This document shows positions 6,943-11,135 of a stretch of 34,877 bases of DNA, piece after piece. Below the pieces are notes generated by a model. The model searched no databases and was not told the origin of the DNA. It worked only from the letters and a program-made list of their open reading frames with translations. The position numbers were made by a program, and so were the translations under genes. This DNA is from an uncultured Planctomycetaceae bacterium. Its GTDB lineage: Bacteria; Planctomycetota; Planctomycetia; Pirellulales; UBA1268. Where the stretch lies: NCBI GenBank assembly GCA_963997395.1, contig CAXEMW010000003.1, positions 1 through 34,877 on the forward strand, written 5' to 3'. How positions within the stretch are numbered: position 1 is the stretch's first letter; each line of letters starts with the position of its first letter.

Positions 6943-7087
6943 GTGTGTTCTCAAAACGGAACGAAGGCATACATAACGCTTCGAAAGCCCACTTTCCTTC
7001 CACGAGCAACTGAGATACACGACGCAAGTGCCTGCAGCGAGACATCTCTCCAAACAGAGTAAAACCATCTACGTCACAATAGTTTTC

Positions 7088-7109
7088 CTGACGAAAAACC
7101 TTTCATCAG
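7088..7109. promoter_or_regulatory. Palindromic operator candidate CTGAcGAAA-AACC-TTTCATCAG upstream of DUF1559 copy 1
   Basis: 8/9-bp inverted repeat with a 4-nt spacer. The equivalent palindrome sits at almost the same distance upstream of the copy 2 promoter. Confidence 0.55.
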
Positions 7110-7149
7110 CTCTCGTTCCGTAAAGGCTGGGGCTTTAAAATACCGAAAC

Positions 7150-7178
7150 TTGTGATATTCCCACTCGTTGGCTACATT
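7150..7178 (+). promoter_or_regulatory. Sigma70-like promoter TTGTGA-N17-TACATT for DUF1559 copy 1
   Basis: Exact 17-nt spacing. Both boxes are conserved in the paralogous region (9045-9073) while most of the spacer has diverged. Confidence 0.65.
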
Positions 7179-7280
7179 TTGGAAGTACGGTAGTGGGTGG
7201 GTTTTGGCATTTTTCATTCATTGGATTGAGATCCTTCTCGCCGTTTTTTTCTTCATTTACTTTTTTCCGGAGTTTTTGTC

Positions 7281-8357
7281 ATGCGTTTCCACAATACGTC
7301 TCGCTCACGCGGGTTTACGCTCATTGAGCTGCTCGTTGTTATTGCAATCATTGGTGTCCTTGTTGGGCTTCTTCTGCCGGCTGTTCAGCAGGCTCGTGAG
7401 GCTGCTCGCCGCTCAAGTTGTCAAAACAATTTGAAGCAACTTGGTCTTGGTCTCGCGACAACCGCAGATCAAAACGCGTGGAAAAGTGACAATCACTTTC
7501 CTCCATCCATTGAATTGAGAGACAATTCAAATACCTCTCTTTCAGCATGGTCGACTGGTGCAACCGGTGCTAAGGGACATACATGGGGAGTACAGATTCT
7601 TCCTACTATTGAACAATCTGCTTTGTATAGCGCACTTGAAGGAATGGGTACCAATGGTTTTAATTCACCATACCCGGGCAATTGGGGGCAGACTATTGGC
7701 CCAAACAGCCCCGCTGGTAGTGCGACTGTGTCAGCGTTCGTTTGTCCATCATGGAGCAATGGCGTTACTGACATTGACGGCGAAAACGTCACAAAACTAG
7801 TCAACAGTCGACCGAGTGCGCAAGGTGCTTCAAACTATCGTGCAAGCGTTGGACAACTCTACTGGGCTGTGTCACTTGTTGGAGCTTCAACAGGCACCCA
7901 ACCCTGGAAAAACCACGACTCAGCCGTCAATCAAGCACGAATCGGCGCCTTCAAAGTTGCAGCGAAGACTGGTATTCCTGCAAAAGATGGATGGACTGGT
8001 ATGGGTGAGTTCCTTGATGGGCTTTCAAACACGGTTCAACTTGTCGAAAACGCTTCCGCTGCGAGGTGGTGGTTTAACAATCGTTACTCAATTAGCTGGA
8101 TCAACACCGCTTGGTGGAATGGCACAAATAACGCAGCTAACGGCGTGCAATACACCCACGGCAGAACCCAAGGAAGTGTTGCCAACGGCACCGACTGGAG
8201 AAAGAACTACATGAACGGTAGCTCCGGGCACACTGGTAATCTTTTCGGAGTCACCATGGCCGACGGCTCGACAAAATTTGTCAGTTATAATGTTGACCGT
8301 GATGTCTGGCTGGAAGCAATTACGAAGGCAAGTGGCAACGTGAATGGTGACTTTTAA
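7281..8357 (+). CDS. DUF1559 (SBP_bac_10) type IV prepilin-like protein, copy 1
   Basis: Class III signal [68 protein letters not shown]-terminal [13 protein letters not shown]. Confidence 0.95.
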
Positions 8358-8387
8358 GTAGCTTGTGGCCAAAATATTGAGGACACA

Positions 8388-8425
8388 GTGTGTGGCAGTA
8401 GCCGAATCAGGGTGCTGCCACACAT
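8388..8425 (+). other. Intercistronic stem-loop between the DUF1559 gene and the lipoprotein gene
   Basis: GTGTGTGGCAGTA (8388-8400) pairs with TGCTGCCACACAT (8413-8425), 13 bp including two G-U pairs. There is no clear U-tract. Confidence 0.6.
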
Positions 8426-8495
8426 ATTGCTATTTGAAACGACATCCGCACAACACTTTTTATTTCGAGTAAACCAACAGATCAAAGGAAATTTA

Positions 8496-8873
8496 ATGAA
8501 AAACTCTTTACTTATTGTGGCGGCCGCAATGATTCTATTGGCCGGCTGCAATTCGGCAGTCGAGGTTCCTCCTGAAAACGTACAGATGCGAATGGACTAC
8601 ATGTCATTCTTGCGAGAAATGAATAACCGCCAACAAGTTCAAGGTGGATATGTCCGAGAAATTTCTCAAGCTGCTGGAGAACTTACAGACAACGATACCG
8701 ATAAAGAGAAATTAGTCTCACTTTCAAAGGAGCTTCTGAAGGCAAAGGGTGAAGACGTCTCTCGACTTTGCGTTGAAATGGGGAAGCTCATTCCATTAGG
8801 TGAAGGCTACGAAGACTATTACCCATCAGCGAAGAACTCGGGGGGGTCTGTTGGCGTAGATGATCAACAATAA
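8496..8873 (+). CDS. Small helical lipoprotein (125 aa), partner of DUF1559 copy 1; unknown family
   Basis: AAGGA SD before ATG 8496; MKNSLLIVAAAMILLAG|C lipobox; homologous to 10397-10792. The ORF-track start at 8388 is too far upstream. Confidence 0.85.
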   Translation: MKNSLLIVAAAMILLAGCNSAVEVPPENVQMRMDYMSFLREMNNRQQVQGGYVREISQAAGELTDNDTDKEKLVSLSKELLKAKGEDVSRLCVEMGKLIPLGEGYEDYYPSAKNSGGSVGVDDQQ

Positions 8874-8883
8874 CTCCAACATT

Positions 8884-8911
8884 CTGGAATCTGTTTTAGA
8901 TCCAGTTTCTT
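8884..8911 (+). terminator. Possible weak intrinsic terminator after lipoprotein 1
   Basis: CTGGA(a)TCT-gtttt-AGATCCAG hairpin followed by TTTCTT. Confidence 0.4.
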
Positions 8912-9004: not shown

Positions 9005-9044
9005 CTTGTGCCGGTTAAAGCCTGAGTTCTCTCAATAACGAATC

Positions 9045-9073
9045 TTGTAGTATTTCGAGTTTCGCATTACAGT
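9045..9073 (+). promoter_or_regulatory. Sigma70-like promoter TTGTAG-N17-TACAGT for DUF1559 copy 2
   Basis: Exact 17-nt spacing; paralogous to 7150-7178. Confidence 0.65.
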
Positions 9074-9185
9074 TTGTTGTACGAGGGCTTGGGGTTTTTG
9101 TATTTTTCATTCAAATCTGATTGATGGTCTCAAGCCATAATCTTCGACTTTTTTTCCTTTATTCACTTGCTACGGAGTGTTAATC

Positions 9186-10184
9186 ATGCGTTTACACGAT
9201 ACGTCTCGCTCACGAGGTTTTACGCTCATTGAGCTACTCGTTGTTATTGCAATCATTGGTGTGCTTGTTGGTCTTCTTTTGCCGGCTGTTCAACAGGCGC
9301 GTGAAGCTGCTCGCCGATCAAGTTGCCAAAACAACTTGAAACAAATGGGTATGGCTCTTCATACCTGGTCTGACACACATCAAAGAAAAGGTGACAGCCA
9401 CTTCCCAGCAATTGGTTCAATGAAAGAAGCGGGGAGTTCGAATGAAGCCAGAGACAAAGCTGCAGATATTGCCTATACATGGGTCTGTGAAATTCTTCCA
9501 GGCTTAGAACAAGCAAATCTTTACAATCAGTTGCAATCCAGAACAACCAACGACGCATGGGAAGCCCCATACGATGGTTCTATCCATGGCTTTGGAAATA
9601 CAACGAATGTATCCACTTTTGTCTGCCCATCATGGACCGACGGCCTGACAGACGTAAATGGTGATTCGTATGTAGCCGAAGCAGGTAGTCGAATCACTCC
9701 CGCAGGAAGCATTACTTATCGTGGCTGCACGGGTCTTACATATTGGAATCAATCCCTCGTTGGACACGCAAACAACAACATAGCCTGGCATAAGTGGCGA
9801 AAAGGTGCCTTTAATACCGGCGTCGTGAAAGGACAAAATGTCAATCAAGGATGGGTTGGATTTGGTGATTTTACCGATGGCCTAAGCAACACCATTCAAC
9901 TTGTTGAAAACGCCAGCGCACAGCAGTGGTGGCGGAATCAGCATCGAGTTGTCTCTTGGTTCACTGTAAATAATACTGCTGAGCCAATGGGTAAAATTGC
10001 TGCTCCAGGCACATGGAGACGGGCCTTCTACGGTGGAAGCTCAGCTCATACTGGCAATGTTTTTGGCTATACAACTGCAGATGGTGCGGTTGGCTTTATG
10101 CCATACACCGTTGACTTGGATGTTTATCGCTCCATGTCAACACGAGCAGGCGAGGGCAGAGATCCGACGCTTAACACACTCTAA
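9186..10184 (+). CDS. DUF1559 (SBP_bac_10) type IV prepilin-like protein, copy 2
   Basis: ATG 9186 after [22 protein letters not shown]...CQNNLKQ is nearly identical to copy 1; FVCPSW, DGLSNT, HTGNVFGYTTADG. Confidence 0.95.
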   Translation: MRLHDTSRSRGFTLIELLVVIAIIGVLVGLLLPAVQQAREAARRSSCQNNLKQMGMALHTWSDTHQRKGDSHFPAIGSMKEAGSSNEARDKAADIAYTWVCEILPGLEQANLYNQLQSRTTNDAWEAPYDGSIHGFGNTTNVSTFVCPSWTDGLTDVNGDSYVAEAGSRITPAGSITYRGCTGLTYWNQSLVGHANNNIAWHKWRKGAFNTGVVKGQNVNQGWVGFGDFTDGLSNTIQLVENASAQQWWRNQHRVVSWFTVNNTAEPMGKIAAPGTWRRAFYGGSSAHTGNVFGYTTADGAVGFMPYTVDLDVYRSMSTRAGEGRDPTLNTL

Positions 10185-10209
10185 TATCCTCTAGAACGTA
10201 GTCACAACT

Positions 10210-10250
10210 TTTGCAGAGGGGCACCAAAAACCCCTCTGCAAATTTCGTTT
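10210..10250 (+). terminator. Strong hairpin / intrinsic terminator after DUF1559 copy 2
   Basis: Perfect 12-bp stem TTTGCAGAGGGG (10210-10221) / CCCCTCTGCAAA (10231-10242), followed by TTTCGTTT. Confidence 0.7.
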
Positions 10251-10396
10251 ATAAACGGTAAGGAAATTTATAATTCAGGGAATCAATCGTTTGTTTGATA
10301 TTAAATTCCCCAAATTTAACTGATTGGATTTATATTTCCGACAAACGATCAAAAACATATTCAAGTTTTAATCTTCAATTAAAAAAGGGGCCTTCG

Positions 10397-10792
10397 ATGA
10401 GAGCATGGACTTCGATATTTGTATTAGTTGTACTTCTTGGTGTTACTGGTTGTGGAAGTAAGATGAGCGGCGCAGTTGACCAGTCCATGGACACGCAATG
10501 TGCATTGGATTCAATGGCCTATCTTGAAGAAATGCATGATCTTGCTGGTGGCGGTGGAGAGGAAGACAGAAGTGATGGCAAGGTCAACCAAACTTACTGC
10601 AACGAAATGAGCACATACCTTGACGAGGGCATGCTTGGCTCCGCCAACAAAGACGAGCTCAAGAAACTCTTGGACGAGCTTCGTAAGGCCAAAGACAAAG
10701 AAGAAATCCAAAGGATCACCGGAGAAATGGCTGGACTGATTGTATTGCCTGAAAAATACATGAGCCGCTTCGCTAAAAAGTACAAAAAGTAG
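10397..10792 (+). CDS. Small helical lipoprotein (131 aa), partner of DUF1559 copy 2; unknown family
   Basis: AAGGGG before ATG 10397; MRAWTSIFVLVVLLGVTG|C lipobox; homologous to 8496-8873. Confidence 0.85.
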   Translation: MRAWTSIFVLVVLLGVTGCGSKMSGAVDQSMDTQCALDSMAYLEEMHDLAGGGGEEDRSDGKVNQTYCNEMSTYLDEGMLGSANKDELKKLLDELRKAKDKEEIQRITGEMAGLIVLPEKYMSRFAKKYKK

Positions 10793-10813
10793 TCCAACAC
10801 TATTCGATTAAGA

Positions 10814-10852
10814 ATGGCCAGTCAGGCGCTACAGGCCTGGCTGGCTATTTTT
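10814..10852 (+). terminator. Rho-independent terminator after lipoprotein 2
   Basis: ATGGCCAGTCAGGC / GCCTGGCTGGCTAT 14-bp stem (2 G-U pairs), 7-nt loop, then a T run. Confidence 0.75.
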
Positions 10853-11135
10853 GTTGCGTCATAACACAGACTTTGGCGACCATATTCTGAGACCAGAAAC
10901 AAGGCTCAACAGAATTTTCTTATAAATAACAACACTCGCATGTTAGCTTCATGCACGTGTTGCTATCTATAAGAGCCGCTATTTTGAAGCTTTCCGAAAA
11001 ACACCCGATTTCGCGGTCCGAAACCTTGACGGCGTTGTTGACGAAATGATTATCTTGAACGCTGCCTTGTCATCAGATGAAATTCACGACATCTACGTAG
11101 TCGGACATGTTCACAAAGAATAACTGGAAGATTTT

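Follow-up and report, generated by a model that had tools for sequence, protein, structure and literature searches.

The locus described here bears on the question of how sulfatase-rich marine planctomycetes, which lack TonB-dependent receptors, import polysaccharides. It encodes members of DUF1559, one of the largest protein families in Planctomycetota that still want an explanation. DUF1559 genes are expanded in this phylum and frequently flanked by signal-peptide or lipoprotein genes (PMC8567305), with 68 paralogues in Planctopirus (PMC10632474). Our window, i.e., the whole stretch of DNA analyzed, comprises 34,877 nt of an uncultured Planctomycetaceae bacterium (GCA_963997395.1, contig CAXEMW010000003.1, positions 1 to 34,877, forward strand). 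The genome is 93% complete and contains 28 DUF1559 genes; we did not find a TonB-dependent receptor (PF00593) in it.

A two-unit array of pilin and lipoprotein genes

The window contains two consecutive units of ~1.9 kb whose starts lie 1,905 nt apart, each composed of a pilin gene (PF07963 and PF07596) followed by a gene for a lipobox protein, as an earlier note on this DNA had described. An assembly artifact is ruled out for this array, because unit 1 also runs on into unit 2 in the contigs of three other studies, with 0–31 differences over 1.8–2.1 kb. The cassette genes are also present in RNA libraries. The ~200 nt located 5′ of both pilin genes are homologous between the units, and no further copy was found in the genome.

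The same note had interpreted the array as a simple tandem duplication, and this did not hold. The pilin N-termini are near-identical and their DNA differences are mostly synonymous, as it had reported (pS = 0.34 and pN = 0.015 for codons 1–44). However, this N-terminus is common to 26 of the 28 prepilin-motif matches of the genome and is therefore no sign of recent duplication. The substitution rates also indicate that these are not plain duplicates: dS is 0.3–1.0 over the first ~45 codons and the bodies are saturated.

At the 3′ boundary of the slot stands a conserved palindrome (10931..10961; palindromes are given without strand), which lies directly before an ECF sigma gene in relatives. 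In the window, an ECF sigma gene and its FecR/LamG anti-sigma partner were lost between ~20-nt direct repeats (junction at 10988..11006, likewise without strand), and this junction is also found on contigs of two other runs. The pair is present 3′ of the cassette in four relatives and was lost twice, each time leaving the cassettes intact.

Prepilins with a conserved helix and a large head

Prepilin 1 (7281..8357, plus strand; 358 aa; G|FTLIE cleavage motif) and prepilin 2 (9186..10184, plus strand; 332 aa) are 49% identical. Both match PF07596 over profile positions 1–267 of 268 (E = 5e-32 and 4e-34, respectively; 112.5 and 119.3 bits; cut-off 23.3). Both also present a class III signal with a basic leader, G|F, E at +5 and a hydrophobic helix (profile ending in 02532; 30.5 and 30.4 bits; cut-off 16.3). 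They resemble the N_methyl DUF1559/SBP_bac_10 proteins of Planctomycetota in passing both domain cut-offs, but differ from the H-X9-DG DUF1559 proteins in carrying H-X10-DG: neither matches H-X9-DG-CTERM (TIGR04294) at E ≤ 1, and 11 of 19 clade members match it weakly.

The alpha1 helix, including E5, is nearly invariant across 40 residues (entropy 0.03–0.5 bits); that of prepilin 1 tracks the locus and is followed by a variable head. The model of pilin 2 (pLDDT 90.7) predicts a type IV pilin core with a 51-residue alpha1 (residues 3–53) and a large elaborated head. In a fold search with this model, 26 of 29 matches were type IV pilins or pseudopilins, the best with a low Z of 4.5 (rmsd 3.6; 122 aligned residues). 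The window pilins share the G|F...E5 signal with type IV pilins and T2SS pseudopilins (PilA4 6xxd, EpsG 4lw9 and Geobacter PilA-N 2m7g) and, going by the model, may also share with them the long alpha1 and the pilin-type core, but differ in that only ~120 of 321 residues align and Z is at most 4.5. Foldseek yielded no match for the pilin model at E ≤ 0.001, and the searches performed matched nothing in the remainder of the head. The genome encodes a secretin, PilB/GspE ATPases, PilC/GspF and a prepilin peptidase.

The short conserved blocks that had been reported in the pilin bodies were all recovered (FVCPSW, YW..SLVG and a third block of 16 residues). The loops between them had been described as rich in Trp, Asn and Gly; Trp is indeed high (4.8% and 4.2%, against 1–3% in most other paralogues), but Asn and Gly are ordinary among paralogues. 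The pilin clade is restricted to the genus (13 of 61 genomes at 1e-40), and its 105 sequences fall into 18 types when grouped at 60% identity.

A lipoprotein predicted to bind the pilin head

Lipoprotein 1 (8496..8873, plus strand; 125 aa; LAG|C lipobox) and lipoprotein 2 (10397..10792, plus strand; 131 aa; VTG|C lipobox) are 28% identical (E = 8e-8). The former belongs to a predicted four-helix family, and the latter is predicted to be a four-helix bundle binding the head of pilin 2. Neither matched any Pfam or NCBIfam family at E ≤ 0.01. The lipobox cysteine is invariant in 20 of 20 aligned family members, which are predicted Sec/SPII lipoproteins. Of 176 family genomes, 12 encode this lipoprotein, and the 12 belong to a single genus. 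The lipoprotein distinguishes the window clade from other DUF1559 proteins, as the clade has a four-helix partner to itself and not the partner family that is commoner in this genome. Nearly all matches (21 of 23) sit directly 3′ of a clade pilin; the exceptions are a match at a contig edge and an orphan. One lipoprotein gene was kept in frame after its pilin gene was deleted.

The predicted pilin–lipoprotein complex scored 0.86 and the best of three controls 0.00; the mark set for this score is reached by 116 of 157 solved pairs and by 2 of 215 mismatched pairs. The runs have 68% or more of their contacts in common, with a partner pLDDT of at least 80. PDB sequence matches span pilin residues 1–59 only, and it is therefore unlikely that the model merely reproduced a solved structure. 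The predicted interface joins the most conserved lipoprotein positions with clade-specific pilin aromatics, and the conserved Trp of the clade fall mostly inside it. A reading of the Trp-rich loops as the site of glycan binding is therefore not supported, as the predicted interface takes in Y175, W176 and W266. In the cassette proteins, we found neither a fold nor a motif indicative of glycan binding. These predictions suggest that the small lipoprotein grips the head of its pilin. The proposal of a two-component module was sustained by this predicted interaction, by the 21 of 23 linked matches and by pilin and lipoprotein types that travel together.

Allele types and probable recombination

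Relatives carry other body-plus-lipoprotein types in the same chromosomal slot, which indicates that the window cassettes are swappable alleles. We distinguished four types at this slot (slot A) and ten among 18 pairs. The flanks are 75–93% identical in relatives until about codon 45, where identity is lost; the promoter and the first ~45 codons follow the locus. Pilin and lipoprotein types co-vary (Mantel rho = 0.65 across 18 pairs and 0.40 across ten type representatives; P = 0.005), a pattern that would also follow from physical linkage alone. The movement of bodies between slots was without support (AU P = 0.245). All 19 heads align as one family that keeps the DUF1559 scaffold.

Transcription signals and a candidate sugar operator

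The earlier note had described the same operator, promoter and hairpins in both units, and each was found in part. Sigma70-type promoters are predicted at 7150..7178 (plus strand; TTGTGA-17 nt-TACATT) and 9045..9073 (plus strand; TTGTAG-17 nt-TACAGT), and the spacing TTG..17..TA...T is kept in all eight site-A upstream regions seen, including those of relatives. However, a generic promoter scan of the locus found no promoter, the unit 1 candidate falling below its cut-off. Hairpins follow pilin 1 (8389..8424, plus strand; z = −5.3; likely an attenuator or mRNA stabilizer) and pilin 2 (10210..10242, plus strand; z = −4.7). A terminator-like hairpin with a T-run on its 3′ arm closes the array behind lipoprotein 2 (10810..10856, plus strand; z = −6.4), but no significant one follows lipoprotein 1 (z = −1.6). 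The hairpin between pilin and accessory gene, a putative attenuator, is present in 14 of 15 cassettes at z ≤ −3.4.

Sites of the LacI family are palindromes with a central CG, conserved ahead of sugar genes. Unit 2 presents a perfect candidate, ATGAAA-CCGA-TTTCAT (8987..9002), the sole perfect TGAAANCGNTTTCA in the genome. At the same gene distance, unit 1 presents a degenerate copy with three mismatches and without the central CG (7091..7106). The pattern was derived from unit 2, whose match is by construction, and the genomes surveyed are kin. The palindrome is perfect in five of eight site-A promoters and, at the unit 2 position, in four relatives. With at most one mismatch, it also precedes every one of the 13 GH43 orthologues that belong to a beta-1,3-xylan cluster (GH26 beta-1,3-xylanase, E = 4e-30; GH43 and an MFS sugar transporter) as well as a DUF1559 gene and a lacI gene of a laminarin cluster, against a background of 4 of 1,909 gene starts. 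The laminarin cluster (GH149, E = 3e-274; GH158, E = 3e-79), found in just two of 21 genus genomes, is headed by a DUF1559–lipoprotein pair paralogous to those of the window. The genome has two PF00356 (LacI) matches; only two of 15 lacI entries are preceded by the palindrome, and these two belong to the laminarin cluster. Elsewhere, it was absent from slot B (0 of 10 within two mismatches) and from slots D and E (0 of 2 promoters), and was found at one of three slot-C promoters. The candidate operator supports a link between slot A cassettes and carbohydrate use. The presence of four allele types beneath one operator argues against one ligand per type.

Proposed function and alternative explanations

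We tentatively favor the interpretation that each unit is a two-gene cassette, in which a DUF1559 protein with a pilin motif is paired with a small lipoprotein whose predicted target is the pilin head. In this view, the types found in the slot differ between relatives, likely by recombination, and the pair likely acts as a sugar-regulated envelope module that catches or sticks to algal beta-glycans. The prepilin peptidase is predicted to cleave at G|F, and alpha1 would anchor the pilin or serve to build it into the only type IV filament of the cell, which is linked to the secretin. Incorporation into a filament is only a possibility, because N_methyl plus SBP_bac_10 proteins of Tuwongella fractionate unlike plain pilins (PMC8567305). 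Helix 1 of the lipoprotein (Q16, D20, E27 and D30) is predicted to dock on the conserved pilin patch Y175/W176/W266/R158/R268, and the hypervariable residues ringing it may render partners type-specific. Crossovers in the promoter/alpha1 repeat would add, replace or delete whole head-plus-lipoprotein blocks, yielding arrays of one or two units, and a LacI-family regulator would tie slot A to the beta-1,3-xylan and laminarin clusters. Least certainly, the heterodimer might bind glycans or glycan-rich particles that filament motion carries to the cell, and phage pressure or ligand variety might maintain many long-lived types. Pili-like fibers of planctomycetes bind dextran (PMC5394234), which is in line with this interpretation.

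A rather unlikely alternative is that the lipoprotein is an assembly accessory (chaperone or primer) of an allelic pilin acting as a general adhesin, with turnover reflecting evasion of pilus-binding phage and no glycan recognition by the pair. The layout recalls the pilA-tfp cassettes of Pseudomonas aeruginosa, whose alleles share alpha1, diverge in the head and each carry a 3′ accessory gene behind a hairpin (tfpO, tfpW/X, tfpY or tfpZ), TfpY likely interacting with the pilin (PMC11841053). The hairpins behind 14 of 15 pilins, the position of slots B and C among housekeeping genes and the 18 types, with a within-type dN/dS of mostly 0.1–0.4 as expected of old balanced types, are consistent with it. 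However, it leaves unexplained the operator common to beta-glycan clusters, 28 DUF1559 genes are unlike a single major pilin, and TfpY itself gave no phage defense in that report. The window cassettes also differ from those of P. aeruginosa by their several slots, two-unit arrays, heads about twice the size, sugar-type operator and a ~110-aa lipoprotein partner set apart by the want of any Pfam or NCBIfam match.

Less probable still is a heterodimer that binds or senses solutes in the periplasm, held at the membrane by alpha1 as a mere anchor and never part of a filament. It would hand on oligosaccharides to transporters of the inner membrane, or a signal to these or to the ECF anti-sigma. Solute binding was the first annotation given to the family (PMC2754498), the fractionation in Tuwongella and a ~270-aa head, large for a filament subunit, would fit, and the ECF pair lies 3′ of the cassette in four relatives. 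Yet the near-invariance of alpha1 with E5 goes beyond the needs of a plain anchor, and both losses of the ECF pair left the cassettes unharmed.

The earlier note had proposed a duplicated module binding sulfated glycans and co-regulated with flanking sulfatases, which we consider improbable. Slot A does lie amid seven sulfatase genes, slot D adjoins a GH29 fucosidase and slot E a sulfatase, and 7 of 28 DUF1559 genes are within 3.5 kb of a sulfatase (3.4 expected; P = 0.047). However, this proximity lost its significance when the distance was set to 2 kb (P = 0.24) or 5 kb (P = 0.10) and when arrays were collapsed (P = 0.07), in a genome with 137 sulfatase matches in 3.1 Mb, and two of five slots adjoin neither a sulfatase nor a glycosidase. 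Co-regulation was not borne out, as the palindrome precedes none of the window's seven sulfatases and a terminator closes the array, and the saturated pilin bodies exclude recent duplicates. Finally, a polymorphic toxin–immunity pair, with a toxic head and a cognate lipoprotein that gives immunity, is very improbable: a constant export N-terminus, a variable head, a small partner in tight linkage whose binding is predicted and the lipoprotein kept in frame without its pilin are suggestive of it, but all 19 heads are homologous with no swapping of unrelated domains, no toxin family was matched in Pfam or NCBIfam searches, there is merely one orphan in 23 matches, and the sugar-type operator would be unexplained.

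Returning to the glycan-catching cassette, a comparison with SusC/SusD of Bacteroidota is plausible in the sense of "works like", given that no TonB-dependent receptor was found and that a paralogous pair heads a cluster of GH149 and GH158, enzymes marking laminarin PULs (PMC10108472). Both are two-gene pairs with a lipoprotein, but here the partner is a pilin-motif protein, the pair has no beta-barrel transporter, the lipoprotein is a small helical bundle (predicted) without a SusD match, and, judging by layout, the window cassettes are not cotranscribed with CAZymes. Another comparison, by description, is with MUL2 of Akkermansia, whose PilM-like and pilin-like proteins tie the PVC superphylum to glycan attachment and uptake; it is a single conserved four-gene locus, for which the available text describes no allelic cassettes (PMC13174399). 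In the literature on DUF1559 pairs, we found no predicted binding, allele swapping or operator.

A bolder reading, which we regard as doubtful, is that of a planctomycete stand-in for SusC/D: a glycan-capture heterodimer of DUF1559 pilin and cognate lipoprotein, which a type IV filament would carry through the secretin, heading glycan clusters and placed in sugar regulons, with interchangeable specificity cassettes that, in this lineage, are reshuffled by recombination in the pilin helix. If true, this reading would name the subunits of the dextran-binding fibers of crateriform structures.

The locus offers a predicted heterodimer with named contact residues, at least 18 natural pilin types as a panel for cognate and swapped partners, and a candidate regulator for which laminarin and beta-1,3-xylan can be named as inducers to try. 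The point where the pilin helix ends, a boundary of recombination, may also explain the frequent assembly breaks at these genes. These cassettes constitute a testable lead on how marine planctomycetes may catch polysaccharides.

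Two consecutive pilin-lipoprotein units

The genome assembly to which the window belongs (G000) has a size of 3.14 Mb, a completeness of 93% and a GC-content of 49%. The genes of the window (contig C3) include planctomycete cytochrome/DUF1553/DUF1549 and DUF1501 proteins, 7 of the 137 sulfatase matches of the genome fall inside it, one homologue carries the label Pirellulales in its source, and all the sequencing runs with matching contigs and a habitat label are marine. We infer that the host is a marine planctomycete with a small genome. A secretin, assembly ATPases, a platform protein and a prepilin peptidase are all encoded; no TonB-dependent receptor was found in the 93% complete assembly. 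The sulfatase cluster also contains a PF10091 glycoamylase-family gene (981-2438), a family with beta-1,2-glucanases among its members.

The two consecutive units of matching layout described in the earlier note are indeed present, with starts separated by 1,905 nt: prepilin 1 (7281..8357) with lipoprotein 1 (8496..8873) and prepilin 2 (9186..10184) with lipoprotein 2 (10397..10792). Both prepilins are DUF1559 proteins and share 49% identity; the lipobox proteins share 28% identity and neither matched a Pfam or NCBIfam family. The ~200 nt upstream are homologous between units and were found nowhere else in the genome. We observed hairpins 3' of both pilins (z = −5.3 for unit 1 and z = −4.7 for unit 2), and the terminator-like hairpin proposed after lipoprotein 1 was not significant (z = −1.6). 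No promoter or terminator in a generic scan exceeded shuffles. The pilin N-termini are nearly identical, as had been noticed, but this is not special to the pair, being common to 26 of the 28 motif hits in the genome.

The passage from unit 1 to unit 2 is spanned by contigs of three other studies. In other runs, contigs over 10165-10377 have pilin 2 and lipoprotein 2 of unchanged type, separated by a differing spacer of about equal length. RNA contigs from four libraries of four studies, 90-99% alike, span the pilins and lipoproteins; one joins pilin 1 to lipoprotein 1 and another pilin 2 to lipoprotein 2, contigs of this kind showing neither levels nor single transcripts. The four RNA runs leave 4200-6600 nearly uncovered, which would fit expression separate from the upstream sulfatase; contigs cannot rank genes, and we counted this gap as no evidence. 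Likewise, run X7 (about 55% read) leaves 7511-9015 uncovered between near-identical contigs on both flanks; this would fit strains without unit 1 but was counted as no evidence, as contigs cannot prove absence.

A genus-restricted partner family

A lipobox protein comes next in 15 of the 31 pilin frames examined in the genome (13 by pattern and 2 by eye). Among these partners, a common family accounts for seven and a second family for four, namely the two of the window and two on contig C59. The pilins paired with this second family form a supported group, present in 13 of 61 genomes that all belong to a single genus. The profile of the lipoprotein family matches 12 of 176 family genomes, solely in that genus, and yields 30 matches among 1.84 billion representative proteins. 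In nearly all the genomic matches (21/23) the gene comes immediately after a clade pilin; of the other two, one is at the edge of a contig and one, in relative G003 (L004:3499-4200), is an orphan. The orphan represents a third unit that kept its promoter and lipoprotein, the pilin having been deleted via short microhomology; its frame stays open through the upstream ATG.

Other DUF1559 arrangements were observed. Before slot B, one of the chromosomal sites holding such pairs, a further DUF1559 gene precedes the gene for a membrane-anchored protein of ~225 aa that is conserved and has no Pfam match (L002:128-1815), and contig C44 carries a similar pair. A prepilin frame at G000:C132:437-634 reaches a stop 37 residues past the motif; in its upstream region it is similar to the DUF1559 gene of contig C313.

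Predicted structures and complex

The pilin model (pLDDT 90.7, pTM 0.88) presents a single helix over residues 3-53. Foldseek returned nothing significant for it, and in a wide fold search type IV pilins or pseudopilins made up 26 of 29 rows, the best Z being 4.5 across 122 residues. The model tentatively suggests a pilin core with a greatly enlarged head, a reading kept tentative because Z is low. The lipoprotein is modeled as a four-helix bundle (pLDDT 81.6) with no fold match at E ≤ 0.001, which does not make it a new fold; its best Z (7.8) was to unrelated helical bundles, in the PDB its sequence hit designed helical repeats, and every Atlas hit was below 0.9.

The predicted complex of pilin 2 and lipoprotein 2 received a score of 0.86, the highest of its three controls reaching 0.00, with at least 68% contact agreement across runs and a partner pLDDT of at least 80. 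Of 157 solved pairs 116 attained the mark used, as did 2 of the 215 mismatched ones; near relatives of true partners pass it too, and the score says nothing on cognate specificity. These models support binding of pilin 2 to lipoprotein 2. The predicted interface lies entirely within the variable head, its core pairing clade-specific pilin residues (Y175, W176, W266, R158 and R268) with lipoprotein Q16, D20, E27 and D30, and the interface rim varies more than the remaining head (2.48 vs 1.89 bits). Because the clade Trp residues sit in this predicted core, the Trp richness of the pilin loops is largely accounted for by the partner, and their earlier interpretation as a glycan site was not borne out. 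Pilin W190, conserved in 103 of 105 sequences, is absent from the list of interface residues.

Probable swapping at fixed slots

Cassettes (pilin-lipoprotein pairs) occupy five slots: A, in this window; B, before a U32 peptidase, with single or double units; C, after a TIM-barrel isomerase; D, before a GH29 fucosidase; and E, with a transposase and a sulfatase. In four relatives, slot A resembles the window (75-93%) over the upstream gene, the promoter, ~45 pilin codons and the downstream region, with no match between. We compared the two pilins of the window over codons 1-44, called the head in this section as distinct from the variable structural head (dS = 0.44, dN = 0.016), and over the remaining body, which is saturated (pS = 0.75, dN = 0.65). 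Since the dS of the heads is near that of the relatives' flanking genes (0.2-0.9) and the bodies are saturated, heads track the locus and bodies are much older. A recent tandem duplication was rejected, saturated bodies being joined to unsaturated heads. The two units are sisters among the paralogues of the genome; each cassette type has relatives elsewhere that are closer or equally close. In one RNA run, a unit-1 head is joined to a unit-2 body (62 nt side, likeness 90), which may originate in a relative.

We sorted the 18 pilin-lipoprotein pairs into 10 types, of which slot A holds four, and the 105 clade pilins in public data form 18 types at 60% identity. Pilin and lipoprotein distances are correlated (rho = 0.65; 0.40 for type representatives only, P = 0.005) and nearest neighbors agree in type in 15 of 18 cases. 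Because linkage alone predicts such a correlation, it indicates co-transfer, not binding. No codon-level diversifying selection was seen, dN/dS being <1 within types. Movement of bodies from slot to slot is unsupported: slot-B bodies are monophyletic (support 100) and monophyly of slot-A bodies was not rejected (AU test, 5,000 replicates, P = 0.245); a head/body mismatch in G003 was left out because its head sits at a contig end. Integron cassettes were judged unlikely from the layout, a separate promoter standing before every unit and the 3' palindrome measuring just 31 nt.

Two further loci showed irregular cassettes. In relative G015, whose genome is near-complete, both genes of the slot-A cassette are frameshifted (L019:9826-11365), reflecting decay or long-read error. 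The end of C313 and the start of C59 (L002 and L001) overlap by 113 nt at 86% identity within a slot-B pilin. This overlap, at an assembly break, represents either allelic copies of a single gene or a pair of paralogues.

An ECF sigma gene paired with a FecR/LamG anti-sigma gene lies between cassette and sulfatase in four relatives. The window lost this pair at 10988-11006, between short direct repeats; relative G018 lost it via another junction that left the start of the sigma gene behind. The palindrome at 10931-10961, unique in the genome, is conserved in five relatives, where it stands directly before the ECF sigma gene, and is retained in the window despite the loss of that gene.

A candidate operator shared with glycan-degradation genes

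All eight slot-A upstream regions conserve TTG-N3, 17 nt and TA-N3-T, likely a sigma70 promoter judging by its spacing. About 45 nt upstream of the predicted promoter is ATGAAA-CCGA-TTTCAT (8987..9002 before unit 2), which agrees with the LacI/cre-type consensus. The sole perfect copy of TGAAANCGNTTTCA in the genome is the unit-2 site, from which the pattern itself was derived; independent support comes from sites outside slot A. At slot A, the operator is perfect in 5 of 8 promoters, with one mismatch in relative G007 and three in unit 1 of the window and in the G003 orphan.

A one-mismatch operator precedes the GH43 gene heading a set of GH43, MFS sugar transporter and GH26 beta-1,3-xylanase genes (G000:C86:1-4100, L047). 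It lies upstream of 13/13 GH43 orthologues, and the genomes with this GH43 are the 13 in which the lacI orthologue was also found. A laminarin-type cluster (operator, DUF1559, lipoprotein, GH149, TPR-like, GH158, operator, lacI), present in 2 of 21 genus genomes (G000:C70:6320-14253, L046; G007:C128, L113), likewise has the operator, with one mismatch, before its DUF1559 gene and before its lacI gene. The lacI frame of this cluster in G000 ends after ~90 codons close to the contig end; a close paralogue on C185, encoding a LacI protein of 348 aa, is intact.

For background, the operator occurs at 4 of 1,909 gene starts, and a genus scan gave 54 strand matches vs 10 with the reversed pattern. 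It was found at 0 of 10 slot-B sites and 1 of 3 slot-C sites, was absent at slots D and E, and precedes 2 of 15 lacI rows. Because the compared genomes are kin, their footprints cannot be counted as separate, independent events. These sequence patterns suggest that slot A is likely tied to a beta-1,3-glucan/xylan regulon. The three most Trp-rich of 27 DUF1559 heads (5.4, 4.8 and 4.2%; C70 and the window pilins) all have a full or degenerate operator, a coincidence that may be due to chance, two of the three being kin.

Co-regulation with the neighboring sulfatases had also been proposed; none of the sulfatases in the window has an operator before it, even with two mismatches allowed, which does not bear this out. 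The proximity of DUF1559 genes to sulfatases is marginal: at a distance of up to 3.5 kb we counted 7 of 28 against an expected 3.4 (P = 0.047), the lone such value in six tests, the other five not being significant.

Possible function

Earlier reports describe an expanded set of N_methyl+SBP_bac_10 genes that often have signal-peptide or lipoprotein genes at their flanks (PMC8567305), the response of certain members to stress regulation (PMC2754498), 68 paralogues of which two are essential (PMC10632474), dextran-binding fibres (PMC5394234), chitin adhesion by pilus in Fimbriiglobus (cited in preprint 10.1101/2024.01.10.575047), alginate induction of a pseudopilin in a verrucomicrobium (PMC13274419) and pilin-accessory cassettes in Pseudomonas (PMC11841053). 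A term search of a report on fucoidan use by Planctomycetota (PMC11685898) returned neither pili nor DUF1559. DUF1559-type expansion and lipoprotein or signal-peptide flanking are thus already in print; our literature searches returned no description of the partner lipoprotein family, its predicted binding, the swapping of pilin-helix alleles or the shared operator.

We propose that each processed pilin would form a heterodimer with its own lipoprotein, and that recombination in the promoter/alpha1 repeat would add, replace or delete blocks of variable head and lipoprotein. Slot A would be wired to a beta-1,3-glucan/xylan regulon, and the likeliest job of the heterodimer would be the capture of glycan or glycan-rich particles. 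Taken together, we hold this reading tentatively, at just short of an even chance. Its main rival, a pilin-plus-chaperone system diversified by phage, appears rather unlikely. Glycan capture and such a phage-diversified system can both hold.
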